64,000 nt of DNA from a virus. Its lineage: Duplodnaviria; Caudoviricetes. A program made the translations under genes and the position numbers. Location of the stretch: positions 39,170-103,169 of the IMG/VR virus record IMGVR_UViG_3300013121_000016. One strand, written 5' to 3'. Below the pieces are notes generated by a model. The model was not told where the DNA came from. It saw only the letters and a program-made list of their open reading frames with translations, and searched no databases. Below, piece by piece: positions 3 to 46,100 of this stretch; the stretch's first letter is position 1, and the number at the start of each line of letters is the position of its first letter.

Positions 3-116
3 GAGGATAAGACTATTATTATTGCGCCTTTTATTAGGCAAGCACTCAATTCTTTTAGGAATAATTCTAACTATGAGTTTATATTTACCTTTTCACTCGA
101 CGGCTCCACTGATTAA
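3..116 (+). CDS. 3' end of a gene truncated by the window edge (hypothetical)
   Basis: Open frame from the window start, EDKTIIIAPFIRQALNSFRNNSNYEFIFTFSLDGSTD, ending TAA 114-116 and overlapping the next start. Confidence 0.5.
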   Translation, partial: EDKTIIIAPFIRQALNSFRNNSNYEFIFTFSLDGSTD

Positions 117-522
117 GCAGACGGCTACTTTAACTGATATTCCGAAGCATATTGTTGAGGATGTAGTATTACATCAGTTTGCGTGGCTCAAGCAGAACCT
201 AGAGTTTCCTACGGCCACTGAGATTAAGCTGCTTCGGTTAGGCACTTTTTCCTTGCATAAAAGGATTACGTATGAAAATATTTCTAAGATAATTTCTCGC
301 TTAAAGAGGAAAGATTCGTATCTTTACACTAATTCTAATGAAGAGAAGTTAACTAAGCTTCTCAATAACTTATTATTACTTCGACACTATGCAAAAAAGT
401 CAAAAAGGTCCCGCGAAGGCTTCTTCGGTCTCCCAAGAAAATCTTCAGCAACTAATTCAATCTCAGATGATTCAGCAGCAGATGCAACATCAGAACCATC
501 AGCTCCATCTGGACACTCTTAA
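73..522 (+). CDS. HU/IHF-like DNA-binding protein
   Basis: ATG at 73; LIKQTATLTDIPKHIVEDVVLHQF...EIKLLRLGTFSL resembles the HU/IHF helix pair plus GxF beta-arm; such genes are common in crAss-like late modules. Confidence 0.55.
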   Translation: MSLYLPFHSTAPLIKQTATLTDIPKHIVEDVVLHQFAWLKQNLEFPTATEIKLLRLGTFSLHKRITYENISKIISRLKRKDSYLYTNSNEEKLTKLLNNLLLLRHYAKKSKRSREGFFGLPRKSSATNSISDDSAADATSEPSAPSGHS

Positions 523-670
523 AACTCTTACGGAGCTCTTCACTGCCACTAAGCCCGCCTCCTCGACTGAGGCAATTTCTCCACTTAATGAGAAGGTAGC
601 GACCGCTCTAGATCATCTCCTCAAACCGTTCCTTCCTCAAGAAAACGAAATCACTGATGACACTATCTAA
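389..670 (+). CDS. hypothetical protein, Gln-rich
   Basis: 93-aa ORF, overlaps both neighbours, TAA stop. Confidence 0.6.
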   Translation: MQKSQKGPAKASSVSQENLQQLIQSQMIQQQMQHQNHQLHLDTLKTLTELFTATKPASSTEAISPLNEKVATALDHLLKPFLPQENEITDDTI

Positions 671-1046
671 TATTACTCTTACTGGAGACAGGGTACTCAT
701 CGCACTAGATGAGCATCCTACTCACACTGTTACTAAAGGGAATATAGTTGTGCCGCGTTTTGAGCAAGGAGTCACAGAAGGAGGTAAGCCTCGATCTGAT
801 TTAGATTCGAGAAAACACCTCTCAGTAGGGACAGTGGTCGCTATTTCGCCCTTAGCGTCCAAGCGAATGTCTGAGGAAGAGACTCCCCTCCGCCCTGGAG
901 ACAGGGTTTACATATCGGCTACGGCTAATAATATCTCATACCAATTTATATCTGATCGTTCGCGCTTAGTCGTGGACTTTGACGGCCTGATCGCCGTGCC
1001 TCATAATTATATTGAGGCAATTGTAAATACACCAACCAATGGCTAA
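657..1046 (+). CDS. groES: GroES/Cpn10-like co-chaperonin
   Basis: LTGDRVLI, TKGNIVVP mobile-loop-like segment, GTVVAI, LRPGDRVY; GroEL lies 2.1 kb downstream. Confidence 0.75.
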   Translation: MTLSNITLTGDRVLIALDEHPTHTVTKGNIVVPRFEQGVTEGGKPRSDLDSRKHLSVGTVVAISPLASKRMSEEETPLRPGDRVYISATANNISYQFISDRSRLVVDFDGLIAVPHNYIEAIVNTPTNG

Positions 1047-1353
1047 TAAAGCTCTCAGTGCTGCACAACTTCAAAAGCAAGTTGCAGACCTTCAGGCAGC
1101 TCTTGCGTCTTCAGAGAAATTGGCTGCCGATCGCGGCCGTCTTCTCGAATACGTTGCTAATCTTTTACTTGAGATTCAAAACAAGTTCTCTAACTCCCCT
1201 GTTCTTACAAATCTGCCCAAGAAAGTTAACTTTTGGTGGCTCCTTACGAACTGGCGTGCAGTCTTAGAGTTCATCGAGTTTGTAGTTCTCAAGATTAAAG
1301 AGTTCATCAAGAATGTAAAAGTTCAGCCTAATCCAGATGCTGCTGCTCAATAA
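1039..1353 (+). CDS. hypothetical protein (N-terminal coiled coil, C-terminal amphipathic/hydrophobic segment)
   Basis: 104-aa ORF coupled to neighbours; FWWLLTNWRAVLEFIEFVVL segment. Confidence 0.7.
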   Translation: MANKALSAAQLQKQVADLQAALASSEKLAADRGRLLEYVANLLLEIQNKFSNSPVLTNLPKKVNFWWLLTNWRAVLEFIEFVVLKIKEFIKNVKVQPNPDAAAQ

Positions 1354-1840
1354 TTTTGATCCGTTCGAAGATTTCTGGGCCACAAACCCGCAGCTAAGAA
1401 TCCTCTTTAAGGAGGAGTACGATGCGAAAGTTCCATCTTCTCAGATGTGGGCTGTGGCTCTCTTCGTCCATCCATCTTCTAAGCTTTTCAATGAATCGCC
1501 GGAGAACCGCAAAAAACTTATTCTAAGTGATTATCTTAATGATCCTTCTTTTGATTTTGATTCGCTTTCTCCAACAATTGATAAGTTTAAAAGACTAGTG
1601 CTCACGAAGGCGGAGCTTCTTCTCTCTAATTGGGAGAAAAGAATGTATGATCGCGAAGCCTTCCTAGACTCGGTTCCTTACTCGCCAGACACTTTCGACA
1701 TGATCGAAAAGATGGTTAAGGAAACTCCTAAACTCTGGCAAAACCTCTTTCAAATTCAGACTGCTCTGTCAAAAGAGCAAGATACTAAGGTTGAAGGAGA
1801 TATTGAGGAGTCACTTTCTGAGAAAGGACTTCTCGACTAA
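1337..1840 (+). CDS. hypothetical helical phage protein
   Basis: 167-aa ORF; its TAA stop immediately abuts the tmRNA 5' end. Confidence 0.7.
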   Translation: MLLLNNFDPFEDFWATNPQLRILFKEEYDAKVPSSQMWAVALFVHPSSKLFNESPENRKKLILSDYLNDPSFDFDSLSPTIDKFKRLVLTKAELLLSNWEKRMYDREAFLDSVPYSPDTFDMIEKMVKETPKLWQNLFQIQTALSKEQDTKVEGDIEESLSEKGLLD

Positions 1841-2085
1841 GGGCCTGATCCTGGACATCTTTGGTTAGTTGTAATCTTTAAATGACGAATCGCTTTCTTT
1901 TGCTGCCTCAATCCCCTCGTGGGCCGTGACTTACATCCAGGCAGCTCCGCTCACCTCTACAGCGGATGACCAAGTAGAGGCACCCGAACTCCTCGAAGTT
2001 TTAGTATAGTCATTACCCTTTACACCTTACTAGCTTAATCGCCCTCTAATCAAACACGCGGGTTCGACTCCCGCCAGGTCCACCA
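1841..2085 (+). ncRNA. ssrA: tmRNA (ssrA-like), compact, 245 nt
   Basis: Acceptor stem GGGCCTG (1841-1847) / CAGGTCC (2075-2081) with G3:U70 Ala identity pair and ACCA 3' end; no D-stem; helix 2 TTTGGTTAG (1860-1868) / CTAATCAAA (2046-2054); T-arm GCGGG-TTCGACT-CCCGC; resume-like TAAAT|GAC at 1879-1886 opening DESLSFAA... Confidence 0.85.
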
Positions 2086-2102
2086 AAAGCTTGCCAGCTA
2101 TA

Positions 2103-2131
2103 GGGGGAGATTGATTAACGATCGCTCCCCC
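2103..2131 (+). other. stem-loop downstream of the tmRNA
   Basis: GGGGGAG...CTCCCCC inverted repeat; may be a processing or termination signal. Confidence 0.4.
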
Positions 2132-2165
2132 AAAGAATAACCGTTCACTTTTAAATTTTTTGCTT

Positions 2166-2267
2166 ATGTCCTACATTCAGGGGGTTTTCAACCACTGTGC
2201 ACCGACGTGTCTGCTCAACGATCATCGCCGCGATGTCCCCCAGCAGCCACCCGGTAGTCGGGTCTAA
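2166..2267 (+). CDS. possible 33-aa small protein
   Basis: ATG after an AT-rich leader (tttaaattttttgctt); MSYIQGVFNHCAPTCLLNDHRRDVPQQPPGSRV-TAA. Confidence 0.3.
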   Translation: MSYIQGVFNHCAPTCLLNDHRRDVPQQPPGSRV

Positions 2268-2354
2268 CCTTTAATCCGCTTCAAGGCTTTGGCAGATCAA
2301 AAAGTTGATCGCTTTACGGGGTAAGGGCGCTGTAATAGTGCCCTGCCCCACTAT

Positions 2355-2428
2355 AGGGTGGTAGTTCAATAGAGTTAGAATGACGGTCTTCAAAACCGTA
2401 GATGAGGGTTCGAGTCCCTACTGCCCTG
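2355..2428 (+). tRNA. opal (UGA) suppressor tRNA-Trp, anticodon UCA
   Basis: Cloverleaf: acceptor AGGGTGG/CTGCCCT, D-arm GTTC..GAAT, anticodon arm ACGGT-CT[TCA]AA-ACCGT (anticodon 2390-2392), short variable loop, T-loop TTCGAGT, discriminator G; body resembles bacterial tRNA-Trp; CCA not encoded. Confidence 0.93.
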
Positions 2429-2445
2429 CTAATTTAAACTTTGCT

Positions 2446-2727
2446 ATGGAAAACACTTGGTACAGATTTCCAATTACTGTCGTTTCTCAACAAGACTACG
2501 AGCTTTATGGTAACCAACCACCGGCTGACGCCTCTATGCGGTCGTACGTAGACTTTAGACTTGACTCAATCGTAGGCCTCAGAGCTTACTTTGAAGATGA
2601 CGGCACGGTCACTGGAACACAAATTTACACGACAGCTGGAACTGATTTTGCTGTCGATCTCAAACCATCCGAGGTACGCAAGATTCTCGGATACACACCT
2701 ATAAATAAAGAAGAACATGGAAACTAA
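2446..2727 (+). CDS. hypothetical protein
   Basis: Start moved to ATG 2446 (MENTWYRF) because the track start at 2380 lies inside the tRNA. Confidence 0.7.
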   Translation: MENTWYRFPITVVSQQDYELYGNQPPADASMRSYVDFRLDSIVGLRAYFEDDGTVTGTQIYTTAGTDFAVDLKPSEVRKILGYTPINKEEHGN

Positions 2728-2962
2728 TTATATTGAAACAGATGGAACCGTCTCAACATCTACAATGCTGAGTCATGCCATCCCTATGGCGGATTGTCCT
2801 TGTAAGAAAGAGTATGTAGAGCGCAAACAGGAACATCGCGTATCTCTATACGCCATATCAGATATGGACCCAATAAAGATTACGCAAGACTTTTCTAAAA
2901 TTATTGAGTACATACAGACACTCGGATTCAAGACGACAGGAGTCGAATTAACTCGTTGGTAA
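2717..2962 (+). CDS. hypothetical protein
   Basis: 81-aa ORF overlapping neighbours in operon fashion. Confidence 0.6.
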   Translation: METNYIETDGTVSTSTMLSHAIPMADCPCKKEYVERKQEHRVSLYAISDMDPIKITQDFSKIIEYIQTLGFKTTGVELTRW

Positions 2963-3204
2963 TGGAAATCACTATTTATTTTGAAGCTATTGATGAGGAC
3001 ACTCTTGGTAATGGGCGCACGATGGTAGCCATCGACGTTCCCTTGGCAAGGAACGTCGAGGACTTCGACAAAGTACTTGACTCTCAATTCTCAAACTTCA
3101 AGATGCGCCTCCTTACCGAGCTCTATAAAAAGTACCCCCACTACTGGCATAAGAATTCACCGATCGAACACGATAAATTAAAATCACTAGAAACGAATGG
3201 CTAG
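2956..3204 (+). CDS. hypothetical protein
   Basis: ORF coupled to groEL; the likely start is ATG 2962 (TAATG overlap). Confidence 0.6.
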   Translation: MVMEITIYFEAIDEDTLGNGRTMVAIDVPLARNVEDFDKVLDSQFSNFKMRLLTELYKKYPHYWHKNSPIEHDKLKSLETNG

Positions 3205-4810
3205 AAAAGTCATATCAGGACAAGAACTACAGGACGGATTATCAAGAGGAGTCGACATCCTTGCCGACGCTGTAGGTTCAACCCTGGGCCCACTGGGCCG
3301 AAACGCTATTATTGAGACTCCTTACGGAGCGACTACCGTGACTAAGGATGGAGTGACAGTGGCTGAGCTTATTGATCTTGAAGATCCTATCGAGAACCTT
3401 GCTGCTCAGATCCTTAAGCAAGCTGCACAGCGAACAGCCAAGGTTGCCGGAGACGGCACGACCTCTGCTACAATTATTGCGCAAACTCTCTATCAAGAAG
3501 CCCGCAAGCTTATTACGTCTGGAGTAGCTCCGATTCACATCAAACAGAGCTTCGAGCGGTTCCTAACCCAAGTTATTCCGCTCATCAGAGATAAGTCTTT
3601 AGAGGTCTCTACCAAAGAGGATATCTATCAGATTGCTCTCATCTCAGCTAATAATGATGCGCATATTGCCAGTCTTATTGCTCAGGCAATGGAATATGTT
3701 GGAAAGGATGGGACTATTACATTAGAGGAGTCAAAGACTGGGACCACTGAAGTTACACTTGTTGATGGTTACGCTTTCGAGCGTCCTTACGCGTCTCCCT
3801 ATTTTGTTACTAATCCTGCGAAAGGCGAAGTAGAATTGGATAACCCACTCATTTTCATTACAGATAAGAAGCTTCGCTACACGCAAGAGATTATTCCTAT
3901 CCTGGAACTTGCTCACGCCAATTCTCGTCCACTGCTGATTATTGCTGATGATATTGAAGGCCAAGTCTTACAGACCTTAGCAATCAACAAGATCTCCGGG
4001 ACTATTAAAGTATCAGCCTGCCGTGCACCTTCGTATGGTGAGAATCGTCTTCAAGTCTTACAGGATATTGCAGCGCACACTTCTGCTACTGTTATCTCAG
4101 AGTCTTCGGGCCAGCGCATTGAAGACACTACTTTTGAACAACTAGGCGAAGCTGCTAAAGTTCGTTCAACTCGTAACGAAACTATTATTATTGATGGAGC
4201 TAAAGATGAAGCACGTACTGAAGAGCGCGCAGAGCAAATCAGACTTGCTCTTAAAGACTACACCGGTGACTCTTATTACCACAAGCAATTACAAACACGC
4301 CTCTCGAAACTCACAGCCAAAGTGGCTATCCTACATGTTGGAGCAGCAACGGAAACTGAACTCAAAGAGAAGAAGGCGCGAGTTGATGATGCACTCCGAG
4401 CTACGACGTGCGCTGTCCAAAAAGGATATGTTGTAGGTGGTGGTACTCTTCTTGCTAAACTTTCAAAACAATTTGCAAATGAAAACGACATCATATCGAC
4501 AGTTTTCGCCAGAGCTCTTTCGGCGCCGCTTCGCAGAATTGCTCAAAACGCTGGCACATCCCCGGATCTCGTCCTTGCGAAAGTACTTGAGGAAAAGAAT
4601 GAGTTTTATGGCTACAACGCGTTAACTAACGAGTATACTGACCTAATTGTTGCCGGGATCATTGATCCTACCCTGGTCGTTGAACAAGCACTACTTAACG
4701 CAGTCTCCGCTGCAAACATGCTAATTCTATCTGCTACTGGTATCTACAACATAGACCGCACGCCGCCCTACTCTCCCGGTAATTTAGGAGACTTTCAGTC
4801 AGAAGAATAA
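3197..4810 (+). CDS. groEL: chaperonin GroEL (Cpn60), phage-encoded
   Basis: TLGPLGRN, VTKDGVTVA, AGDGTTSAT, ISANND, VGAATETELKEKKARVDDAL, GIIDP motifs; no GGM tail. Confidence 0.97.
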   Translation: MARKVISGQELQDGLSRGVDILADAVGSTLGPLGRNAIIETPYGATTVTKDGVTVAELIDLEDPIENLAAQILKQAAQRTAKVAGDGTTSATIIAQTLYQEARKLITSGVAPIHIKQSFERFLTQVIPLIRDKSLEVSTKEDIYQIALISANNDAHIASLIAQAMEYVGKDGTITLEESKTGTTEVTLVDGYAFERPYASPYFVTNPAKGEVELDNPLIFITDKKLRYTQEIIPILELAHANSRPLLIIADDIEGQVLQTLAINKISGTIKVSACRAPSYGENRLQVLQDIAAHTSATVISESSGQRIEDTTFEQLGEAAKVRSTRNETIIIDGAKDEARTEERAEQIRLALKDYTGDSYYHKQLQTRLSKLTAKVAILHVGAATETELKEKKARVDDALRATTCAVQKGYVVGGGTLLAKLSKQFANENDIISTVFARALSAPLRRIAQNAGTSPDLVLAKVLEEKNEFYGYNALTNEYTDLIVAGIIDPTLVVEQALLNAVSAANMLILSATGIYNIDRTPPYSPGNLGDFQSEE

Positions 4811-7050
4811 TGATTTTACCTTCTAATCCTAAAGATTTCTTACTTAAAGAAATTCCAGATTTCCATCCTCTTTCTGCATCTTGGGCTGCTTTCTGAAGAG
4901 AGCAGTATCGATACTGCAAGGAGGGCTATTGGGTGGGTGGCACTTGAATGCCGCCTGCCCTTTACTATTATGCGAACTTTGGAACTATTAAGAAGAACAT
5001 AAAGTTTTCCTCAGCCAAAGTTTACGATCGACCAGACCTTCGAGATCTGGAATGGGACCTCTTCTATCACTACAGTGAAGCAAGAGGTTTTTCTGGTTTT
5101 AAGTATGATGACGTTTATTCGTCACACAGGATACTACTTGATCCTGACGTAACTGACGATTTTTTACTTCTTAATCTTCCTGAGACACTTAATTCTAAGG
5201 GAGAACGTAAGACATATGTGCCTGCGCGAGATTACATGCGCAAGCTACATCCCACCGCTCTTGGCCCACCGCTCTTTGACAACGAGAAGAAGAACCTTAT
5301 GCTTCTCGGCTCTCGTGACTTAGGTAAGTCGTTTGCTGTCGGTGTAGGGATGGTTGGTCACATGTTCCTCTTTCCGCCCGCTGCCAATCACACCAAACGT
5401 ATTCCTACTGAGGTTCTAGTTGGAGCATCTATTTCTGACAAGTCTCGAGATCTTCTAAAGAAGACTAAAGACTCTTTTGACTTCCTTCCGGGTAAGCGCA
5501 CTATCTCTGGTCGCACTTACCCTTCGCCATTTTATAAGCAGTACTCTGGCTCTTGGTCAGTAAACTCGGATATAAAGGCTGAATATAAGAAGAAAGTGGA
5601 TGGTCGTTGGGATACTGTTGGTAGTCGTGCTGTTATTAAACACAGGTCCTTCAACGAGAATCCGTTTGCTGCTCAAGGTACCCGCCCCGACCTTATGGTC
5701 ATTGAAGAAGCAGGTATGGCTCCCGAGCTTAAAGACATTTATGTTCACTCAGTGGATGCTCTTCGTCGCGGTCTTACCAAGACTGGTACTCTCCTTGTAC
5801 TTGGTACTGGTGGTGACATGGCTAAAGGTACACTTCCAGCCTCTGAAATGTTTTACGAGCCTGAGAAGTACGACTTCCTGGCTTTTGAAGACATTTATGA
5901 GCAGCGCGGCAAGATATGTTACTTCATACCAGCCTACTATTCGCTTGATGAATTCCGTAACGCTAATGGATATGTTGATGTAGAGAAGGCGACTAAGAAA
6001 CTTCTCAATGTACGTAAGCTCAAAGGAGGCGACTCGGGTGCGTCTACGGCACTCGATATGGAAATGCAGTATCGTCCTTTGGTGCCGTCAGAGATGTTCC
6101 TATCTAAGACAGCAAACATCTTTCCTTTTGCGGAATTGCGTCGCCGCCTCTCGGAAATACAAGCTACCTCTACTTACGAGAAACTAGAAAAAAAGGTAGA
6201 TCTGTTCTTCGATCCGTCGGCCAAGTCCTACAACGGAGTATCTTACGAGATTAACGATAGACTTAATCCAATTACTACGTTTCCTTATGATGGAGACGAT
6301 AGAGAAGGAGCTGTTGTTATTTACGAGTTCCCACAGCTTATCGACGATAAAGTACCGCAAGACGCCTACATTATTGGTTGTGACCCGTATAAAGATGATA
6401 CACAGGAAGGCCAATCGCTCGCCGCAATTTACGTCGTAAAAACCTCGAAGTACTTCTCCACTATCGGTCACGATGAGATAGTTGCTTCATATATAGGACG
6501 CCCATACATGGGTAAAGTGATTGTGAATGAGATACTTCACAAGCTGTCACTATTTTACGGCAACGCCAAGATTTACTTCGAGAACTCAGTGGGTAATGTC
6601 AAAGATTACTTTGAGCGCGTTACGCGCCTAGACTTACTTGCAACACAGCCCACGACTCTTTTCAACAAGAAGGCTTCCTACAACACTTCTCCGACACTTA
6701 TTTACGGTTATCCCATGCCCAATCAACGAGTTAAGTGGGAGGCGCTCCAGTACTTGCGTACGTGGCTTCTTACCGACCGAGGTGATGGTAAGCGCAATTT
6801 AGATCTCATATCTGACCCAGCGCTTCTTCAAGAGCTAATCTCCTTTAACCTTGACGGCAACTTCGATAGGGTGATGGGCTTGGTGGGTTGCGTTATTGGA
6901 CTGGAGGAAACCTTCAACCACACAAAACGATCACAGGAGCGAGAAGTATACTCTTCAGCTCTTGATTTAGAGATAATATCAAAGCTTACAAATAACAAAG
7001 CTTTATTCTATGAAAACTTTCCCAAAGCAAAGACTTCCATATTCGCATAA
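4810..7050 (+). CDS. terL: terminase large subunit, 746 aa with 2 TGA=Trp
   Basis: ATG 4810 overlaps the groEL TAA; in-frame TGA at 4894 and 4945 give AAF[W]REQ...EGYWVGGT[W]MPP; Walker A-like GSRDLGKS, Walker B MVIEEAG, LGTGG, RNase H-type YIIGCDPY and NFDRV. Confidence 0.92.
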
Positions 7051-9415
7051 GATAGCAAAGGATTACAAGTGGGCTAAGGAAGTGATGAACCATCTACTCG
7101 AGAATTTCACACTAGACTCCACTGCTGTAAACGCTTTCCAGACCGATTACCATAGGAAGCTTTCTAACTACCAACTTTACAATAATCAAATTAATCAAAA
7201 GGACTTCGAGCGTGAATGCAATCCACTAGGACTAGAGGTCGGTCAGATCGCTGACGAAATACAGCCTTATAATAAAGGTAACAACAAGATTCAGGTCATC
7301 CTTGGTGAGGAACTCCGTCGCCCATTCAACTTCCGTACTATCTTAGTTAATTCAGATGGAATTCGCTCTAAGATGATGTATCGCGACACCCTACTTCGCA
7401 AGTTCGTGGAGGATCAAGTTCAACAGGTGTTGTCATCTCTTTCGCAGATGTACGATCAAGAGAGACTTCAAGAAGAGACAGAGAAGATACTTAACCCCAA
7501 AGAAATAGAACGCTACATGTCGACGTCTTATTTAGATGCGCGTGAGCAGCTGGCAGCTAAAATGCTACGTTATCTTCTTCGTTCCCTCGATATACAAGAT
7601 AAGCGCAATGACGCTTTTAAGCACGGGCTCATCTCTGGTGAAGAGGTTGTCTATGTAAGCGTGCAGAATGAGCAGCCTGTGCTCGAGATTATCAATCCTC
7701 TAGGGTTCTTCTATCACAAGTCTGCTGAGACTAAGTGGATTCAAGACGGACTTTACGCGGGCTTCCGTACTTACCTTTCACCTGCTGAGATCATCGATCG
7801 ATACGGTCAATACCTTTCGGAAAAAGAGCTTAAGGACATTGATTCAGCTCTTTCAGCATTCCACGACTCTGATAACGCAATCTCGCGCTCTATGAATTAT
7901 GGACACGATCAGTTGCTTAAAGTACAGCTAGACCTCACCACGCAAGGTTCTTACTCGGATTCCTCTATCGAGGATTATCTCGTTGAGCACATAGAATGGG
8001 TGTCTCAGCGCCGCATCGGTTTTCTAGAGATCACTTCTCCAGACTCCGAGCCAGTGACTGATATGGTGTCAGAAGACTTTCCAATTCCTACTTACGCCAC
8101 ATCTCGCACCGAGACTAAGGAGTACGGCAAAAAGTGTACTTACATCGAGTGGCTTGACGAGTTAGGCAATGCCTACTCGCTTGAGTGGGGATGAATCCCA
8201 GAAGTATGGGAAGGTGTGCGCATTAACCGTAACATCTATTGCTGCATTGGTCCTAAAAAGGAGCAGTTCCGTTCAACGGACGATCCTTATACAGTTAGAC
8301 TCGGCTACCATGGTCTTGTCTATAATGCGATGAATGCTCCATCTATTGCTATGATGGATCGCATGAAGCCTTTCATCTATCTTTACATGATAGTGATGCA
8401 TAAGCTGAAGCGGCTAATTGCCCAAGATCAAGGTAAGGTGTTCCACTTCGATATATCGATGGTAGATCCTAAGATAGGTCTAGAAAAGACGCTCTACTAC
8501 CTTAAGGAGATGAATCTTGACATCTTTAATCCGCTTCAAAATGCTGACCAGCCCGGTCAAATGCAGCGCGGTAAAGTGTCTTCGTCTACGGATATGTCTA
8601 ACACACAACATATTCTTAATTACGTGTCTTTACTTGCTGCTATCGATCAACAGATCGCTGAGGTTGCAGGTGTGACTCGTCAACGCGAAGGACAGATTTC
8701 CCCTAATGAAGCTGTAACTAATGCTCAGTCTAACGCGCAAATGTCATCTGTAATCACTGAGATTTATTTCTACGCGCACGACCGGCTTTGGGAGAAAGTC
8801 CTCACTTCACTTCTGCAAGTTACACAAGCTGCCTGGAAAGGTAAGTCAATAACCAAGCAGTACGTTCTTGATGATCTTTCCCTAGCTACCCTCGAAATAT
8901 CTGCAGATCAAGAGTTCGAAGAGATAGGAGTGTTTGTTACTAACTCTGGACATGAAGTACAGATGTTCGACGCGCTCAAAGGTATATCTGATGGTCTACT
9001 GAACACCAACCGCGCTACCTTCTCTGATCTTATTGCGCTCTATCAAGCAACTTCTGCCGAAGAACTCAAGGACCTTATTAGACAATCCGAGAAAGAATCC
9101 TTCGATCGCGAAATGCAGAAACAACAGCAGCAGACTGAAGCACAAGCACAGATGCAGCAGCAACAACAAGCTTTCGAGCTTGAGAAACAACAGCGTGAAT
9201 TTGAGCACGACGTTCTCATACACGAGATTGATTCTTTTAAATTCCAGAAAGATCAAGACTCTAATGACAATCAGATACCTGATCAGCTTGAAATTGCGAA
9301 GCTAAAACTGGACGCAGCGACAAAGCAAAAGAAACTTCAACTTGAAGAAAGAGCCCTTGATATCAAGGAGAAAGAAGTCAAATTAAGGGCAAAACAGAGC
9401 TCCACAAAGAAATAG
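7010..9415 (+). CDS. portal protein, 801 aa with 1 TGA=Trp
   Basis: Two track ORFs are in one frame, joined by TGA 8192-8194 (EWG[W]IPEVWEGVRI); follows TerL; crAss-like portal motifs (VLGEELRRPF-like, GVTRQREGQI, Q-rich coiled-coil tail). Confidence 0.9.
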
Positions 9416-10529: not shown

Positions 10530-12002
10530 ATGGCAACTCCTCAATCCTCCTTTATTATTAAACAGTTGGAAGGCTTTGGTGGCTCCTTTGTAGATTCCGA
10601 TTACTTGGGCGCTTCCTACGAGATAGGTAAACCTCACGTATTCGAAGGTACGCTCATGAAAGTGTACTCTTCACAGTCCATGTTCTTCGGTCTTAAGCCG
10701 CTGATCTCCATGACTGGCGCAAAAGGCGGTACTGTTGAGATCCCTACCGAAATCTACCGTTGGTCACTGCAAGGCGCTGAAGAGCGCACTGCACGTAGCC
10801 TTGAAAACCTGGAATCGTCCAACGACACCCCGGGCTTGAATGGTACGACCTTCCGCATCAAACTTGACATCGACTACTACAAGTATCCGGATGTCCTCTT
10901 CTCGGAAGACAATGAACTTCCGCTTGCTATCCAAGAAGGCCCGATTCCTGACGGAACTGGCTTCATCTACATTGTTCGCATTCAATCGGACAATCCTACT
11001 CTCTACCTGCCTAACACGTACCTGGAACCAGGTCGCCAGTTCAACAAAGTTTGGACTTCGACTCCTTCAGAAAACAATCAATGGTACGGCACACAACAGG
11101 CTCCCAATACCTTCCAGCTCGAAGCTCAAGTTGGCTTCTTCTCTCAAGGTTTGGAAGTAACTGACAAGGCTATGCGTGAAGACGGTCGCCTGCTCATCAA
11201 ATTCCTCCACACGGATGCATCTGGTAACTCCACAGTTATCAACAAATTCATCCCTTACTACGAGGCTAAGATGCAAGACGAACTGTACCGCTCCATGGAG
11301 GTTAACCTCATGTACGGTAAGCGCTCAACCCTGCCGGGCAAAGAGAAGTACTGGACCAAAACTGGTGCTGGTTTGCGCGAGCAACTCCGCGATTCTTGGA
11401 TCGAGACATACTCCTCAGCTCTGACAGCTAACATGCTTCAGGACTACCTGATGAATATTTTCTTCGCTCGTGAAAATGAGCAGAACCGTTCGGTTCGGGC
11501 TATGACCGGTACCTTGGGCTCACTCTTGTTTCACAATGCGCTTGTCGCCATCTCCAACGGTTTCTTAACCGTTGACTCTCACTTCATCTCTTCGGCTCCC
11601 AATGGCTCGGCCGTTCCTGGCTTGGCGTATGGCGCTCAATTCACGCGCTACCGTGGACCAGAAGGTATCATTGTAGACTTGATGAAGAATGGTATGAATG
11701 ACTCTACGCTGTACTGCAAACGTTTCCACCCGCAGTATCCTGATATGCCGATTGACTCAGCTCGTATGACGTTCCTTGATTTTGGAACTTCCGGCGGTCA
11801 AAACAACATCTCGATGCTCAAAGTGAAAAACTCGTTTACTTACGGTGTTGTAGAAGGCATGGTTGGTCCTAACGGTCCTAAGACTTCGGGCACGACTTCT
11901 TCGCTCAAGCATTCCTACGATGTGGGTATGAGTGGCTCGGCTGGTATCTGGGTTAAAGATATCACGCGCTGCGGTGAACTCATCATGGACTTCGAAGGGT
12001 AA
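10530..12002 (+). CDS. major capsid protein
   Basis: 490 aa; position after portal and scaffold; YRWSL and TGAGLREQL motifs typical of crAss-like MCPs; C-ending codon bias suggests high expression; 6 TGG and no TGA. Confidence 0.85.
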   Translation: MATPQSSFIIKQLEGFGGSFVDSDYLGASYEIGKPHVFEGTLMKVYSSQSMFFGLKPLISMTGAKGGTVEIPTEIYRWSLQGAEERTARSLENLESSNDTPGLNGTTFRIKLDIDYYKYPDVLFSEDNELPLAIQEGPIPDGTGFIYIVRIQSDNPTLYLPNTYLEPGRQFNKVWTSTPSENNQWYGTQQAPNTFQLEAQVGFFSQGLEVTDKAMREDGRLLIKFLHTDASGNSTVINKFIPYYEAKMQDELYRSMEVNLMYGKRSTLPGKEKYWTKTGAGLREQLRDSWIETYSSALTANMLQDYLMNIFFARENEQNRSVRAMTGTLGSLLFHNALVAISNGFLTVDSHFISSAPNGSAVPGLAYGAQFTRYRGPEGIIVDLMKNGMNDSTLYCKRFHPQYPDMPIDSARMTFLDFGTSGGQNNISMLKVKNSFTYGVVEGMVGPNGPKTSGTTSSLKHSYDVGMSGSAGIWVKDITRCGELIMDFEG

Positions 12003-13773: not shown

Positions 13774-14510
13774 TGACTAACGCAGAACTTTATTACGCAA
13801 TAGACATCAATCTAGATCGCATTGCGACACTTGCGAATCCCGATCTAAATGTGGCGGAAAAGGACTGATTATTAACCGAGGCACAGCTGATGCTAATTAA
13901 GCAGCGCTTTTCCGCTCTGTCCAATCCTAAAAGAGCTGGCTTTGAGCATACTGAAAAGCGTATACAGGACTTAAGCTCTTTAGTAATTAAATCGCCAATC
14001 CAACCTCCGATTATTCCGACTGTCCTTGACACAGGTGTAGTCGAAGTTGACCTGGCCCAAACAATCTATCCTTACTTATTTATCATCTCGGCTTTTGCTA
14101 CAGTTGAAATAAGTGAAGATTGTCTTAAAGAAATTCCACTTAAGTTCATACAGCACGACGATTACAGAGAAATCCTAAGGGATCCTTTCAACTCACCTTC
14201 ACAAGAGTTTCTCCCTTATAATCTAGGATTAGCCTCGTCAAGACTAAATCCGTCAATGTTCGTCTATACAGGCAGCATCGACTCAACAGCAGTCAGTTCT
14301 GTGAGCGTAGAGTTCATAAGACGTCCACCAAGAGTATCATCCGGTACTTACACGTATTTGGATGGTATTACTTATCCGCAAACAGGTCTATCGGTACCAG
14401 AGCACTTACAACTTGAAGTTGTAGACTTAGCCTGTCAACTTGCGGCGCTTTCCACTCAGAATCCTGAGTACATACAGCTGCGCAATCAAAAAGTACTGAT
14501 CAACGAATAA
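13773..14510 (+). CDS. head-tail ring/adaptor-type structural protein, 245 aa with 1 TGA=Trp
   Basis: ATG 13773 (TAATG coupling); TGA 13866 gives AEKD[W]LLTEAQ; GFEHTEKRIQDLSSL and PEHLQLEVVDLA motifs. Confidence 0.75.
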
Positions 14511-15895: not shown

Positions 15896-15917
15896 TTTTT
15901 CCATTCAAAGTTCTTCC

Positions 15918-15972
15918 AAAAGGGGTCTTAAGGGAGTCGTTTCTACGTCTCACTCTAGACCCTTTTATTTTT
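15918..15972 (+). terminator. intrinsic terminator
   Basis: AAAAGGGGTCT...AGACCCTTTT stem followed by a T-rich run. Confidence 0.6.
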
Positions 15973-15986
15973 TAACAACTTAACAA

Positions 15987-16481
15987 ATGTTAACTACACA
16001 ACAACTTTCTCGCATATTCCTTCCGCTTTCTTTCGGCAAGCGCTCGGGCAATTCTGCCTCCCTTTACGAGATCATCAATTCTTACCTTAAACTGTTCCCT
16101 ACCAATAAGGTAGTTGTAAACTCTTCTGCTCCCGCTGCCACCATAACAATTGGTGATGCGGCTAATAATGGCGATACGGATGGAGCGGTTTCTATCGTCG
16201 GCAATAAGTACGCAGGTCAAATTACTGTTGAAACAGGTGATGCTACCGCGGCTGATGATGTGATCTGCACTGTCAATTTAAATGATAGTAAGTACGACGA
16301 AAGCGTGAACACGTTATTTGTCCAAATTACTCCGGTAAATGCAGACACCGCCCCCTACGCAGTATTTACGCATGTGGAAGATGCCCTCAATCCTGGAGGA
16401 GAGTTCACCCTTAACAACTCTGATACACCGTTGGTCGCCGCCACTACGTACGTTTGGAACTACACAGTCCACTACATATAA
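15987..16481 (+). CDS. small virion fibre/decoration protein
   Basis: N-terminal IFLP motif shared with 16485 and 24150; beta-rich C-terminus. Confidence 0.6.
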   Translation: MLTTQQLSRIFLPLSFGKRSGNSASLYEIINSYLKLFPTNKVVVNSSAPAATITIGDAANNGDTDGAVSIVGNKYAGQITVETGDATAADDVICTVNLNDSKYDESVNTLFVQITPVNADTAPYAVFTHVEDALNPGGEFTLNNSDTPLVAATTYVWNYTVHYI

Positions 16482-16484
16482 ACT

Positions 16485-29300: not shown

Positions 29301-32300
29301 TACATTTACACGCGGCATTAACCAAGATACGCTTCCTAAGTTTCAACCTGAAGGAACATATCGGTATGCGCTCAATGCAGTGTTAGAAACTGAGAATGGA
29401 GACACGCCAACGGTAAGTAGCGAGTTAGGGACTACGTATTGTGCAATCGACTGGCCTACGGATAAAACACTCATAGGGCACACATTAACTGATTCAGACG
29501 ATATTGTTCTTTTCTTTTACGACCCTACGCCCTTCAGACCTGAGCACGAAATTGGAATCTATAACCCAAACACTTGTAGGTATACGACACTTGTAGTTGA
29601 CCAGTTCCTTAACTTCTCAGACAAATACCCTGTAAATGCCTTATTTCGCGTTCGTAACGGCTGTGATGGTTTTGTATACTTCACCGATAACTACAATCCT
29701 TACAGGGTCATCAACATCTCTGATACCTCAGACTGGGTAAACGGTTTTGGAATGCTCACCTCACCCTCAAAGATCCTACTGTCCCGCCCTTATACACTGC
29801 CCACAATTGCGGCACCAACTAGTCCAGTCAAGTACGTAATTGATTCTGGAGGCCAGCTTGAGTATGGAGCATACTCCTTCTATATCCGCTACCTGGACAT
29901 CGATTCTAATCCAACGAATGAATGGATTCCTCTTACTAATTATATACCTATTGGTAAAGGTCTGCAAGTAAACCAGAGCAATACTTTGTTGGGGGGAGCT
30001 TCTAATAATATTGCTTCGGCTTTATACGCAAACAAAACAAATAAGTCGATAAGATTCTCGATAGATAATCTTGATACCAACTTCAAATACTATCAGTTGG
30101 CGGTGGTTAAACGTACGTCAGATTCAGGAGCAATCTCTGGAGTAGATGTGCTATTTCCTGCACCAATCACAACAACGACGGAGCAATATACTTATACCGG
30201 ATTTAACTCTCAAGTTCTGTCTGCTGCATCAATCGAGGAGATACTAGTACCACGCCAACGCATAGAAAAAGCAGTAGCTCACGTGATCCAAGATAGGCGA
30301 CTTTATTTTGGGAATAATTCTTTTACAACGCGTGATTACTCTACTTATCAAAGGTATGCCTCTAAGATTAAATTAACTTACAAGGCGACAGCTGCTGGCG
30401 ATAGAGATGCAAAGAATCCGCAGAACTACATATATGGACACACGCTTTGCCACGATGAGATTTATGCTCTAGCTATAGTCTATGTACATGATGATGGCTC
30501 GCTCTCACCAGCCTTCCACATCCCGGGCCGCCCGGCCAATTTGGACTTTACAGGGCACACTAATCCGTACATAACATCATACACTATATGGGACCGAGAT
30601 GATATTACAGGAGATCCTAACATATTTAATCCGGCAAAAACAGAACGCTGGCAGGTCTTTTCAACGGCAACTATTGATACTGCTAACTCAAATGCTCTGG
30701 AGCACGTTGGATACTTGGGGTTTCACGAGAATCCACAAACGTACCCTATAATTGAGACCTGTGATGGTGGAGACTACTGGGGGCTAGACTGGTATGGTAA
30801 TCCGCTAGATGGAGATAAAATTCGTCACCACAGGATGCCTGCACAGTGAATGTATGTTGGAGCAGGTAACGCCTCTTACGGACAATATAGGATCACACTC
30901 GAATTAGATAATCTTGAATTTCCGGACTCATCAATTGTAGGTTACTATATTGTCTATGGAGACCGTACGGAAGATCGCACAGTCCTCGATCGCGGATTTA
31001 TTAAACCTCTATCATGGGATCCCACTGATGAAGTGTACTATTATGATTATCCTGATTGGGATATAATGTACTTGCGCTATGATGCAGAAAATAACAAGAA
31101 CTATTCTTTCGTAAGTCCTAACACATTATTTAGGTCAGCCTCTTTAGGAGGTGATTACATTTCCATAGAGAAGCGTTTGATAGCAACTCCAACAGATAAG
31201 ACGGACACTAATGTAGTTGACGCTGTTGAGTGGGATGAGACACTAACCGTCGATTCTAATATATACGAGTATAATGAATACACACGACCGACTAGAATTA
31301 ACTATAAGGTCGTTAATACTGACACTGTAACAAAGCATACAGGAACAGTTGGTAATGACGCTACGATCCAGACAGGTAACTCAACCTTCCTGCAGTCTAC
31401 GACTGGAGACCGCATGGAGAATCGTTCACGCTCCTCTAGCATAGGTATTTACGAGTTAGAGGATTACATGGAAGAGCTCGATGAAATACCTTTCGCAGAT
31501 GATGTGGACCACGTCACCGACTATACTGAGTTCGAATTCGAAGCTTTCATTGCTGCAGCTAAATCAGACAGAGACGTATTTACAAATCTATACACGATTA
31601 ACTATAAGCGTTTATCACCATATGTACATCTAGGTAATACTACACCCATACAAATTGTAGGCGGTGACATGTTTATGCCTTGGCTAGAAGTACTAGAGAA
31701 TTACTGGAACTCAACACAGACGTACACTCACTTAGTGAGCGCTCAGATAGTGTCTGATATTAACACCGAGTTCAGATATTACTCTCAAATAGATAGAGGC
31801 TTATATACGCACTACAGATATCCAGGTGGATATGACCATAAATTACTTTCTAACTATATATCCACTAAGTATTATCAGCCGACAGTAGATATCCATTCAT
31901 TCTATTCTGAGTACTACGAGGTCAATCCTAGCTATTCTTACCAGAATGTTGATAATGTGTACACGCCTATTCCTTACGACTACCAGTTCTGTAACGACTG
32001 TATAGAAAACTTTCCGTATAGAATTTACTATTCAGAGTTGGACAACGAGGAGGAAGCGCAAGATAACTTTAGAGTCATCCTTCCCAATAACTATTCTAAT
32101 ATAGAAGGGGATTCAGGACCGATTACAGACTTGTTTACGGCATTTGACCAGATATATGTTACTACAACAAATGCAATCAAACGTGTGCCAACTAAGGCAC
32201 AAACCCTTAAGTCAAACGAGAACACGATCTATATTGGAACAGCAGAAGTCCTATCCTTACCTTTAATAGATTTAGTCTCTACAGACTATGCAATGGGCGG

Positions 32301-33405: not shown

Positions 33406-36400
33406 TGAGTAAGATTTCCCCCAAAAAAGCTAGAGAGATCCTACAAGACGGTTCAGTTAGAGGTCGCAAGCTTACGGACAAGCAACGCAAGTTCTTTGGT
33501 GCGATGGCGGCTTATGCCGAAGGTGGCCCAATCGATCCATTTGATCCTATGTACGTTAAGCCGCCTAAACCTTCTATACAGAAATTAGGCAATATAGAAT
33601 TTGATTCTAATGCAGCACGGCCAACAGGAAGTCATCCAAATAGATTTGTAGTAAAGGATATAAAGACTGGTAAAGACTATGGAGTAAAAAGATGAAATGA
33701 TGGGACTTATGATTTTTGGAATAAGGATGAACAACAATCAGAGAAAAGCTGAAGTTACTTAAAAGACGTTTACCGCGATGATGTAGACTGACTAAAGAAG
33801 AACTTACCGGAACATTCAGTAACCGTGCGTCCTGGGGTAAGGGCAAATTATAAACCGGCTTTTAATAACATGACCATAGGAAGAGATATAAGCGATTATA
33901 TCAATGAAGCTGCACATGTTTTGCAACATAGAAGCGAGCTAAAAAATTCTAATGGTTGAGGCTGAGGTTATGATCTCGGAGAAGTAGAGTACAATATTCC
34001 AGGAACAGAGGAATTCACGGCACACAAAGAACTTGCACCGTTAATAAATGATCGCTTAACTAATAAGATGCCTCTACCAAATATAGGTAAGCTTATAACT
34101 AGCAATCCAGACTCTATGCACTATGCTAATACAGATGCTTCTATAAGACTACCTAACGGCCACTTATTAGTTTCTGATGCAACGAATCCGTATAATCCTT
34201 ACACGGACTACACACCAGCAAAGCGATATAGAGAAATTGAAAGGCAGAAAGACGGCTCGTACAGACAAGTTAAGTCTTATAAATTTGAGGACTTAGATCC
34301 TGAAACTAGATATAATCTTGATAAACTGTATATAGCGAATCCTACAGCTTTAGATAATAGTATTTATGATAGTCGCAAATATAGAGATTGAAAACGTCGT
34401 ACTGGACCAATTAATATTAAAGAGGAATACGCTAATGGCGGTCCAATTGATCCACCAAACATTCAGACCTTAGGGAACATCAAGTTTGACTCCAATAAAG
34501 CTAAAAATTTTAACGGTGTCCTGTCAGTGACAGATATAAGTACGGGAAAGGATTATGGGGTAGTGCGGAATTCAGATGGGTCATACAGATGGTTCAATCC
34601 AGAAAAGGAGAAACTTCCGTCTCAAGTAGATTATTCTAAAAACTACTATAAAGATTTTATTAATTCTCCCCAATATCCTAAAATTAATTCCGTTAAAAGC
34701 TTAGTCGATCTTGAAAAACAGCTGCGGGTAGACTACCCTGATATTGACACATATCCAGCAGATATAGCAGCATATTTTAGGGAAGGCATGGCTTGAGATA
34801 AAGCTAGGGAATTCGAAGAATGGAAAGCTTCTGAATTGGAGGTAATTAAAAATGCGGATGTTAGAATTCAAAAAAGTCCCAAAGGAGGTTCCTACTCTAG
34901 GAATTCAGATGGAGTGATCTTTATCGATCCTACTGTTAAAGAAGAGCGCGTATACGATCGCCAAGATATAATTACACATGAACTAAGTCATAACAAATCT
35001 AGGGACAGTAGAAGTAAGAGTAACCCAGCTGGAAATCTGTTTAATACACATTTCAGGGGACCGTACGAGTTCAACGCAGACTTCGATCCCTTTATTGAAA
35101 GAAGTAGAATTCAGGATTACCACGACGCAAATCCAGATGAGTATAAAGCAGATGTAAACGCACTAAGGTTTAGATTTATGCGTGATGGAATATATGATCC
35201 GATGAATCAAGACTTTACAAAAGAACATCTTGAAAAAGCCAGGTCTAACAAAAAACTTTCTAAAGATCCAATTTTTCAGAGGTTTTTAAGATTAAGTAAA
35301 GATGATGATGCAGCAATCAAGGCTTTAAACAGCATTACGAGTATAGAAGATAAAACTGATGTTTCCTCGGCCGCTTACGGTGGTGAATTAGCTAACAATC
35401 AAATGAAAAGAAAAAAGAAATATGCTTATGGTGGTACTTACCAACCTGTTGGATTACCCGTCGATCCAGCTGACATCAGAGCACAGAAGGCACAACAAAG
35501 AAAAGAAGAGGGTAACTTCTGGACGGGACTAGGTAGATTTGCTACCGATTATGCATTACCCATGATTGCTTCCGCAGTAGGCGGACCTGGTGCAGGTGTG
35601 ATAGCCAGAGGTATCTCCTCAAGACTAGGCAATAACTCCCAAGGTAATTTTGCGCCTGTTACGAGTCTGCCCGACTCGCCGACTATTGATTATGTGGATC
35701 CTTCGTTCGAGCTTGATAACGGGATCAGGACAAGTGCCTACGGAGGCCCAGTCCTGCCGCCAATGTATAGTGACACTATCCCCGCCCCGAATTATTTTCC
35801 AGCAGTAATGTGGAATACACCAGCGCCCACGCGCGACACAAGCTACGACAGAGAATACCAAAGGGCTCAAATGCGCCAGGATTCTATGTTGAAGTACCGC
35901 AACACGCGCCGCTCAATGTCAAATGCTACAGGTATCGATTACGGTTCACCAATGAATACTTCCTACCTACCAGATCGAGATTATAGGGGCGGTGAAATGA
36001 ATCGCAAGTCTAAATCAAGAGATCGTTTCAGGGAGTATGATAGTGGTGGTAGGACTTCACGGTTCCCGCACGACTCTACTGTATCTCAGTTTGATTGGGT
36101 AAATCAAGGAGTACCTTCGGCTAACTCGACATCGAAAAGAGGACTCGAGGAATCTAACAGACGTGTACTTGCTGAAGGCGATACAGGAGAAGAAGTAGCA
36201 CAGCTTCAAAATTTCTTAAAAGCTAAAGGATTTTATAAAGGAGATGTTGATTCTAAGTTTGGCAAGAGAACAAAGAAAGCTGTAAAAGATTATCAGCAAT
36301 GGTTTAATGATAATGCTAAATACCCTGTAAACTATGTACAGAATGGTAACATTGTACTTTCTGGTCCAGGCCATAAGAAAGTCGATGTGGATGGTGTTGT

Positions 36401-43100: not shown

Positions 43101-46100
43101 ACGAGCTGCGCACTAATGCTGCCGAAGAACTAGTTCAGAGCAGTGAGACACTCGTTAATATGGCCATCAAAGATGGAGAATTTAACGACGACTTTGACGA
43201 GTTAGATCGTGTCCTTCTTGAGGAGGAGCTTCTGGAAAAGTATGCCAAAGATGTCATCGAGCCTAAATCGTATGAAGAGCCAAGAGTATATGGTAAGCTT
43301 TCTTCAAGAATCAAAGACCTGCTTGCTTCTCTTAAAAGAATTAAAGAGCAGATCATAAAGAATCGCGCCGACAAGGAGCTTAAGGCACGTGAAGAGATTA
43401 TGATGCGCCTTGAAGGACTCAAGAATCTTGTGGGGCTAAACGACGATAACTCCCCTATAGTCCAAGACCTTGGCGAAGAGCTCACAGCAAAACTCCGGAT
43501 ACTGGCAGAACAACAACCACTTGACGCGTACTATGTTTTGATGGACGCAGTATCTGATCCTAAGATGCTTGCCGTGCTTTCAGAATTTAAGAGGGAAGTT
43601 AAAGACACTATTAGTAGTCTAGCCATATGAGGAACGGACTCTCCAATGGCTGTGCGTCTAAGTGAAGCTGAGCTTGAAACCTTTGTGACCAATCCCGTAC
43701 GCGGTCTTCAAATCTTGTTACGCGCCATTCACATTAATGAGAACCAGATAGGTGCAACGAATCAGGACGTACTTACGGCCTATCTTCGTGATTACGATAT
43801 CGTAAATCTCAAGAAGAGACTTAATGGTTATTCTGGAACCTTGACAACTCCTGCGCAGATAGAGAACATCATTAAGCTCTACATGAAAGCGCTAGCTTAT
43901 CAAGATATGACTTTAAGTCGCTCGAATGAGAGTTATCGTAAACTTGTGAATACGTATCTAGCTTTTGTAAAGAAAAGTCAGGAAGACAAGAAGAACAATC
44001 TTCCAGCAGTTCCGCCCCCGAGCGAAACACAGATGAAAGCTGTGTCCGAGCTCGCTAGATTTTTAATGTCTCCGATAAATGAAAGGCATTATGTATTCGA
44101 TAATGTTGCTGCTATCAAGGCTCCAGCAGGAGCAGGTAAAACCACTGTCGTATTTAGACTACTTAAGGAAGTCCTCGGTTATGGGCCAGATACTATCATG
44201 AGTGGTTCCACGACACAGGCCTCGGCACAGTTAATTGCCGAACAAGTCTCTTCCACCTACGGCGCTAATGAAGCCACTAAGATCACAGAGTTACTAGAGG
44301 AAGGTAAGTTACCGCCTGCCGTTAGGTTGCTTGTACTAGATGAAATTGGTGCTCTAGGCGTACGCGAAATGCAGCGCTTAGCCGCGGCCATTGTATCTCA
44401 TAACCTGTCTAAACCTAAGCAGCAGATTAAGGTGCTGTTCATGTACGACTCTAACCAGCTAACTGCTGGCAATCGTGGGGATGCAGTTATCGACATCAAT
44501 CCTTTCTATGAAGTACCTGAGAATATCACAGAGTACCACAATGGGGACGAAGTATCTAAGCGCAAGTACAAACAAGGACTACATACAGTAAACGGGCAGT
44601 ACGATCCGCGTTTTGCAAGTGGCGTAAACTTTCCGCACCATATCTTTGATGTGTCTCCTCTTATTGCTACCTACCGTTCTCCGCTCTCTGAGATCATAGA
44701 TGCACAAAATGCGTTTAAGTCGACACAGGTAGTTGAGTCTATTCAGACTGCAGCAAACGTGGACACTACTGGATCCATGGTAGGAGCTATGGGTACAATG
44801 GCATCTAAGACAAACGGCCAGCTTCTTACAAAGCTTGTAAGTTCTTACAACTCTAACCCTGGTAGAACTAGAATGGTCGTAGTGGGAACAGATGAGAAGA
44901 AGGCTAGATACATGACTGATTTAGCAACCGCCGGAGCTGCGGATGTGCAAGTCTTAACTGCGGCAGAATGCAGAGGCTTAAAGGCGCAGGAAGTGTACGT
45001 AGATATTGAGAACACAGATTCACATTATTACTCAGAACCAGTTGCTTACAACCAGGCGATGTATACGGCAACTTCAAGGGCCGAAACATTCTTGTACATA
45101 AGTGGAATAGCTAGTAGTCGTCATACAGTCGATGCTTCGCTTCCGACCAAAGTAAATGAAGTTCTTAAGAGTAAAGATATTAAGTACGATACAGTTATCG
45201 ACGCTCTCACACAGCGCTCAAAAGCTTTTGAGATCTTGGGAGCCGAAGAACCTGTCACTCCTCCGAAGCCACAAGAGCCGCAGGCTCCACCAGTAACACC
45301 TGAGGAAGCTCCTGAGATTCTTAACGGCGGAACTCCTATTGAAGAGGATGAGCCCCCTATTGAAGAGTCGCCAGCTCCGCCCGTAGGCGGAGACGCCCCA
45401 CTCCTTGACCCGACAAGTTCCAATTGGCATAAAATATCCGCCCCGCAATCTGAAGCGTTTAATGACGCTCGCCTCGGTAGCATTAGACCAGAAGAAAAGG
45501 TATTCTACGCAAGGGAGGTGGATAATGGAATGTCTCGTATACGTGTCTTTGTCGCAGGTCCAACAGAAGGAACTTTCAGACAGATAGGTATTCTCATGGA
45601 TCACGAAGTTGGCTCAGTGTCTAAAGTTCTCGGCGCAGACTTAACGGCCTTACCGCCGACAAAGTTCTCGCCTGACCTTCTTAATGATACTACTGGTAGA
45701 AATATATTCAGAGCAATTGGTCCACAGCCTGTCAACATTGCCGACGCGAGAGTGTCGAGTGCGTCCACCGATATAGAGTACAAGTATGATTCCCCATTAC
45801 CGACCTTTACATTCAAAGGCACACCTGATGATCCTAACGGCTTAAAAGAGATCGCCAAGTATATGACTGACGCTCTGTTTGGAACGCAAGCAGGTCAGAT
45901 TGTGAACTTAGATGATTTCAATTCTCGCCCAGAGGAATTTATGCGTTTAATTGTTTACGAAAACGAAGCTGACAGAAATGCAGACTTCCCTAACGTAATA
46001 AACAAGCCACGTCTAAATATCCCATACCTTATAGTCCACGGACTTAAGACGAATAAGGGTAAGACAATGGCTCGCCAGTTTATTCAGCTTAACGCTACTG

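Follow-up and report, generated by a model that had tools for sequence, protein, structure and literature searches.

A putative UGA suppressor tRNA with a tRNA-Trp-like body in a distant, partly recoded crAss-like phage

The 74-nt gene at positions 2355..2428 (+) of the window, i.e., the whole stretch of 64,000 nucleotides analyzed here, specifies a tRNA with the anticodon UCA in a Trp-like body, which very likely serves a virulent crAss-like phage as a functional opal (UGA) suppressor in a standard-code Bacteroidota host. Direct reading, ARAGORN, and Rfam all identified the gene and confirmed the preliminary description of a UCA anticodon, a CTTCAAA loop, and a G discriminator. It is the only tRNA that ARAGORN detected, whether in the window or in the genome as a whole. 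Within 27 curated genes, 38 in-frame TGA codons were found vs 160 TGG codons.

The window corresponds to bases 39170-103169 of a single record of 103,169 bp, the last ~141 bases of which repeat its first; IMG/VR lists this genome as 100% complete, with direct terminal repeats. PHROG profiles identified the terminase, portal, and major head protein. In a tblastn search, the portal was ~30% identical to those of cr53_1, of phiCrAss001-type Bacteroides phages, and of the Flavobacterium FpV21 type, and the phage is thus a distant member of Crassvirales, whose known hosts are Bacteroidota. The tRNA had been called phage-encoded, and its location in a complete crAss-like genome with direct terminal repeats bears this out. 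The nearest relative by PolA was protein P0001 (62% identical), encoded on a 102-kb contig, and an IMG/VR search for PolA relatives found none. Since a domain search of the phage revealed no RF-1-domain or TrpRS-class gene, charging and termination would depend on host factors. Among public sequencing runs, an activated sludge metagenome DNA run had a word share of 0.20, from which neither habitat nor expression is inferred, and no RNA run was listed with this sequence.

The genome is written in two codes, arranged in blocks. When TGA was translated as sense (code 4), the coding density of the replication block (genome 0.2-16.3 kb) increased from 0.855 to 0.916 and its ORFs decreased from 28 to 21, while the density of the late block increased from 0.964 to 0.995. 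The early block on the minus strand (genome 16.7-38.75 kb) gained nothing (0.838 to 0.832), and 18 of its 36 ORFs ended at TGA. Approximately ten TGA-ended genes genome-wide, almost all belonging to the early block, stopped inside an ATGA start/stop overlap, and several early-block TGA stops were followed by TAA or TAG within 0-6 codons. TGA was used as sense in genome 0.2-16.3 kb and in window 4810-60849. Since the early-block genes nearest the divergent control region still stop at TGA, the host is expected to terminate at UGA and probably uses the standard code; the earlier suggestion of a standard-code host is supported by early genes ending at TGA with ATGA overlaps. Affiliation with Crassvirales, the promoters and GroEL described below, and the TGA-ended early genes are indirect pointers to the host's code. 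In-frame TGAs were concentrated near gene starts, with 15/37 lying in the first 15% of the gene (p = 1.5e-4), or 10/30 (p = 0.01) when one gene with seven TGAs was left out, a distribution that would suit a gate by which translation is stopped at little cost as long as the suppressor is absent. A difference in the +4 base (T after 2/37 in-frame vs 5/17 early-block terminal TGAs; Fisher p = 0.026) was too weak to build on.

The in-frame TGAs are real, in that translation with table 11 split several conserved genes or removed their 5' ends, while reading TGA as sense restored them whole. In the terminase large subunit, the PHROG terminase match spans both sites: codon 29 (4894..4896, +), opposite W in both relatives compared (G001 and L004), and codon 46 (4945-4947, +), opposite Y or W. 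The portal profile runs over residues 3-795 in one stretch across the TGA at codon 395 (8192..8194, +), which aligned with W in 26 and Y in 2 of 28 relatives. Codon 32 of the gene at 13773-14510 (TGA at 13866..13868, +) was opposite W in L001 and L in G001. The TGA at 30847..30849 (+) joins 29287-30849 and 30850-33405 into one gene of 1372 aa; in G001, the homologue runs uninterrupted by any stop through residues 1-1372, with E opposite this TGA. The gene at 33405-38240, encoding a 1611-aa tail/lysis-domain protein, holds seven TGAs (33693, 33750, 33789, 33957, 33963, 34389, and 34794; 33693..34796, +) in its first 464 codons, and no homologue covering this N-terminal part was found. The region 40163-56263 (+) consists of three table-11 ORFs (1155, 2181, and 2004 aa) in one frame, split by two TGAs only (43628..43630 and 50189-50191, +; opposite W and Y, respectively, in G001); as the G001 homologue is continuous across residues 1-4204, this region probably encodes one protein of 5366 aa. 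On the opposite strand, TGAs were present in PolA (three), an SF2 helicase (three), DnaB (two), a primase (one), and an exonuclease (three), and profiles or PDB homologues matched straight across them.

The residues aligned with these codons point to an aromatic amino acid, above all Trp. At the nine sites with comparators, W was found in at least one relative at six, only Y at two, and only E at one. The TGA at PolA codon 409 is opposite Y in the Klenow fragment, and, among 35 homologues, the three PolA TGA columns were mostly Y, F, or W, resembling the variable TGG columns of the same protein. Conversely, every in-frame stop found in homologues from the relatives was a TGA: two were opposite Y or F, and the third lay within an insertion. 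In the homologue alignments of the true reading frames, R, G, C, or S was found opposite no in-frame TGA. Trp alone agrees with the tRNA body as well as with the TGA-site columns; the sites with E (one) and L (one) count against it. The proposal that the tRNA decodes in-frame TGAs is thus upheld as far as these codons and their alignment with Trp or aromatic residues are concerned.

All ORFs from window 22 to 4810 were free of TGA and ended at TAA, and the first in-frame TGA lay in the next gene, the terminase. This cassette contains a GroES-like gene (657..1046, +; Pfam Cpn10, 27.5 bits vs a cut-off of 21.1) and, immediately downstream of the tRNA, a GroEL gene (3197..4810, +) identified by a profile match, the product of which was ~45% identical to GroELs of Chitinophagales and other Bacteroidota. 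Two Bacteroidota-type promoters (genome 38086-38117 and 38516-38548, + strand) are located just upstream of the cassette, and the pattern matched four times in 19.4 kb vs 0.41 expected; a scan within the window found no such promoter directly upstream of the tRNA. Scans for sigma-70 promoters and terminators were uninformative, except that they revealed the T arm of a tmRNA-like gene. This 245-nt gene (1841..2085, +), 270 nt upstream of the tRNA, was called by ARAGORN at a relaxed threshold only, with weak and partial Rfam matches. It has a 7-bp acceptor stem (GGGCCUG/CAGGUCC-A-CCA) with G3.U70, an encoded ACCA end, and the T arm GCGGG-UUCGACU-CCCGC. The relaxed-threshold call gave the tag APELLEVLV*, and a longer frame, of 42 codons, starts behind the conserved motif UAAAU|GAC. 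Two relatives have the gene in synteny (L002:3947-4208 and L160:3364-3612); these copies passed the Rfam tmRNA gathering score (62.9 and 53.4 bits, respectively), and their acceptor and T stems differ by compensatory changes.

Relatives with ~60% identical TerL carry a longer UCA tRNA (94-98 nt) after the tmRNA and before GroEL/TerL, at the same locus as the window tRNA (L002:4332-4429, the same phage as G001, and L160:4436-4529). In this two-arm design, another hairpin, with a 5-bp stem and the loop (C/G/U)UCCAAA (NUCCAAA), is inserted between the normal UCA anticodon arm and the T arm. This second, spare CCA hairpin copies the anticodon arm of tRNA-Trp. A pattern scan of IMG/VR yielded 45 two-arm loci (L169-L213) with 26 unique tRNAs of 93-98 nt, the second stems of which co-vary, and our search found no papers describing such phage UCA tRNAs. 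The window tRNA resembles them in locus, CUUCAAA loop, G73, and T loop, and differs in its length of 74 nt and its ordinary 4-nt variable loop without a second hairpin. Because sister phages have the two-arm version at the same locus, the one-arm tRNA is a natural comparator for what the spare hairpin does. In L158, another relative (TerL, 61% identity), GroEL is preceded by a tRNA-like gene of 107 nt (326-432; Rfam tRNA, 37.4 bits) with a large insertion and no clear anticodon. In G001 (L031), the major capsid gene (~14692-18042) is in three pieces with gaps of ~0.8 and 1.0 kb, which suggests introns or other insertions; that of the window (10530-12002) is uninterrupted.

The tmRNA-like gene may be functionally linked to the tRNA. 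In a wider, tentative reading, which we consider possible but rather unlikely, the suppressor and the adjacent mini-tmRNA would form one conserved translation-reprogramming module of this crAss-like clade, in which the tRNA opens UGA to decoding, the tmRNA handles or exploits ribosomes that pass the terminal UGA of a host or early-phage message and reach its 3' end, and the one-arm tRNA is a simplified sister of the two-arm form. If so, the window tRNA would be a natural test of whether charging by TrpRS needs the spare CCA hairpin. The same gene arrangement bears on a different main role, namely damage to host translation, in which read-through of host UGA codons would serve shut-off or counter-defence; such a role was proposed for crAss-like phages by Yutin et al. 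(PMC7886860) and is compatible with suppression of the phage's own TGAs. The tmRNA-like gene beside the tRNA here and in two relatives would be sensible if read-through creates non-stop ribosomes. However, essential phage genes are whole only when UGA is decoded, which makes decoding of phage genes at least a necessary role, and the phage's own TGA-ended early genes would be hit too. We therefore consider damage to the host very unlikely as the main role.

The segments of the tRNA are AGGGUGG-UA-GUUC-AAUAGAGUUA-GAAU-G-ACGGU-CUUCAAA-ACCGU-AGAU-GAGGG-UUCGAGU-CCCUA-CUGCCCU-G, in which the acceptor (AGGGUGG/CUGCCCU), D (GUUC/GAAU), and anticodon (ACGGU/ACCGU) stems, U8 and A9, the CUUCAAA loop with the anticodon UCA, the 4-nt variable loop AGAU, and the T arm GAGGG-UUCGAGU-CCCUA can be assigned. 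The last base is the discriminator G73, and the CCA end is not encoded. In the 64-kb window, RF00005 of Rfam matched with E = 2.6e-9 and 55.7 bits (gathering score, 29), placing the gene far beyond chance, and the match covered all 71 model positions (1-71) with a single non-standard pair flagged, 49:65. A type I cloverleaf of four stems, with U33 in its 7-nt anticodon loop, was thus found above the gathering threshold. On the other hand, the D loop (AAUAGAGUUA) lacks G18G19 and the T stem is not fully paired, 49:65 being G.A; further non-canonical pairs are the wobbles U5.G68 and G6.U67, and G10.U25. The cloverleaf was not recovered as the minimum-energy fold, which is common among tRNAs and was not counted against the gene. 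A table-11 ORF (2380-2727, +) overlaps the tRNA; translation probably starts only at the in-frame ATG at 2446, and the resulting 93-aa product matched no family.

These irregularities (the missing G18G19, the G49.A65 mismatch, several wobbles, and a thermodynamically weak fold) are what would be expected if the gene were a decayed relic, with the TGAs being read by other means, for example, near-cognate decoding by the host's tRNA-Trp(CCA), a suppressor of the host, or an RNA that escaped detection. Other routes may indeed exist, since suppressor tRNAs were found in only ~35% of TGA-recoded phages in published surveys (10.1101/2021.08.26.457843), and the flanks examined of two relatives, L161 and L004, contained no tRNA. 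Nevertheless, every stem and the T loop are intact at 55.7 bits, a UCA tRNA has been kept at the same position in relatives, and the gene is the sole tRNA of a compact genome, with exactly the anticodon that ~38 codons of essential genes need. Decay is therefore highly improbable. Likewise, an attP site or tRNA fragment was rejected, since the gene is complete and no arm is missing.

The A1-U72 pair and G73 constitute the signature of bacterial tRNA-Trp, and both are present in the window tRNA, as in most sampled Bacteroidota tRNA-Trp genes. When the 74 nt were compared by BLAST with 301 whole Bacteroidota genomes, matches were found in 103, and the best 30 loci, typed by ARAGORN, were all tRNA-Trp(CCA) with 54-61 of 74 identical bases; the neighboring Thr, Tyr, Gly, Asp, and Arg genes gave lower scores. 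A separate search of four genomes gave Arg(CCU) or Asp as best matches, with weaker scores. The top match in the GenBank "phage" collection (79.7% identical) is located between tufA and secE-nusG-rplK, and these neighbors indicate that it is in fact a chromosomal Acinetobacter tRNA-Trp. Derivation from tRNA-Trp, as originally proposed, is therefore well founded on A1-U72, G73, and these nearest genes. A blastn search of all complete E. coli genomes gave no match (no shared 11-mer), two pattern scans of IMG/VR for Trp-like UCA tRNAs with one arm yielded three loci only, with different acceptor stems, and an IMG/VR scan for close homologues of the exact D arm plus anticodon arm found none. Since no near-identical bacterial or viral gene was found, the tRNA is probably an old, diverged phage gene rather than a recent capture.

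At position 34, the window tRNA has U in place of C (U34 C35 A36 instead of C34 C35 A36), and this single change is probably what makes it a suppressor. Bacterial TrpRS recognizes C34 as an anticodon base, so that charging could be inefficient with U34 and without the spare CCA hairpin that the sister phages keep. The pair 11:24 is C11:G24 in 19 and U11:A24 in 1 of 20 sampled Bacteroidota tRNA-Trp genes, while U11:A24 occurs in 16 of the 26 two-arm phage UCA tRNAs. The preliminary description had likened A24 to the Hirsh UGA suppressor of E. coli, which is a tRNA-Trp with G24A and a CCA anticodon. The base is present, but the analogy carries little weight because the anticodon is already UCA and A24 simply pairs with U11 in a plain Watson-Crick pair.

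It is extremely improbable that the tRNA decodes UGA with another amino acid, i.e., Arg, Gly (code 25), Cys, or Ser/Sec. Arg has the most to be said for it: one Bacteroidales tRNA-Arg(CCU) is 79% identical between positions 8 and 63, with the D arm, the anticodon stem, and the variable loop AGAU in common, and a Zeta crAss-like TCA suppressor was scored as Trp or Arg by tRNAscan-SE (PMC12386605). Over the full length, however, the match was 61/74 for tRNA-Trp vs 52/74 for tRNA-Arg(CCU), and the A1-U72 pair with G73 is that of Trp. A36 and the absence of A20 presumably misfit the identity set of ArgRS, and we take G73 to misfit Gly and Cys (U73). The single sites opposite E and L would suit another amino acid, whereas W and aromatic residues dominate the TGA sites, among which there is no R, G, C, or S; code 25 was rejected since G aligned with no TGA. 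ARAGORN labeled 2355-2429 as a cloverleaf "tRNA-SeC (tca)" because of the anticodon alone, and the earlier exclusion of tRNA-Sec held: this identity requires an 8/5 layout, a long variable arm, and a D arm with 6 bp in the stem and 4 nt in the loop, none of which is found in the window tRNA, with its 7/5 acceptor/T layout, 4-bp D stem, 10-nt D loop, and 4-nt variable loop.

For the preferred reading, a Trp-inserting UGA suppressor, we propose the following course of infection. The tRNA would be transcribed with the TGA-free cassette (GroES, tmRNA-like RNA, tRNA, and GroEL) at the start of the rightward block, downstream of the two host-type promoters, and the transcript would be processed and given its CCA end by host enzymes. 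Host TrpRS may then charge it with Trp through the retained identity set A1-U72, G73, C35, and A36. The UCA anticodon would read UGA (probably also UGG) in competition with host RF2, allowing full-length synthesis of replication and virion proteins, which together hold ~38 in-frame TGAs. Early TGA-ended genes would be translated before the tRNA accumulates, and genes with TGAs near their 5' ends would be gated until it does. The gene with seven TGAs argues against this scheme, as it demands high per-site read-through with RF2 present, and no RF2 countermeasure was identified.

In comparison with bacterial tRNA-Trp(CCA), the window tRNA shares A1-U72, G73, A9, C35, A36, A37, A38, the short variable loop, the GGUCU/CAAAACC anticodon arm, and the UUCGAGUCC T loop, and reaches 74-82% identity with the Bacteroidota and Acinetobacter genes; it differs in U34 for C34, the lack of G18G19, G49.A65, and U5.G68 for G-C. 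It resembles the Hirsh suppressor in A24 paired with U11, but has a UCA anticodon and needs no D-arm trick. The tRNA-Trp(UCA) of code-4 bacteria (Mycoplasma and Spiroplasma) and the trpT UCA suppressors of E. coli are charged by TrpRS and read UGA and, by wobble, UGG. The window tRNA has the same combination of a Trp body and a UCA anticodon, but, unlike that of code-4 bacteria, would be brought by a virus into an RF2-bearing cell, giving UGA two meanings per infection. The phage may thus provide a complete and compact example of two genetic codes used in one infection via one tRNA, with no synthetase or release factor of its own. For annotation, such a genome should be translated block by block; otherwise, ~20 genes appear as fragments.

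Suppressor tRNAs(UCA) with TGA-to-Trp recoding are already published for crAss-like and other phages, including gut phages (Yutin et al. 2021, PMC7886860; Borges et al., preprint, 10.1101/2021.08.26.457843) and the Zeta crAss-like phage Lera (PMC12386605), and block-wise recoding with a possible regulatory use has also been described (PMC7886860; 10.1101/2021.08.26.457843). Like the published crAss-like cases, the present phage has a UCA tRNA, TGAs in TerL, portal, and other conserved genes aligned with Trp, a predicted standard-code Bacteroidota host, recoding of part of the genome, and no TrpRS of its own. Unlike them, it stops approximately half of its early genes at TGA, has a portal only ~30% identical to the named ones, and carries a single tRNA in its genome, beside tmRNA-like and chaperonin genes. 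In the curated examples of Borges et al., replication genes stay in the standard code (10.1101/2021.08.26.457843), whereas PolA, helicases, primase, and exonuclease are recoded here, which makes this replication module less usual than the published ones. These results extend the published picture to a phage only distantly related to the gut crAss-like phages behind the literature, in which replication genes as well as late genes may be gated by UGA.
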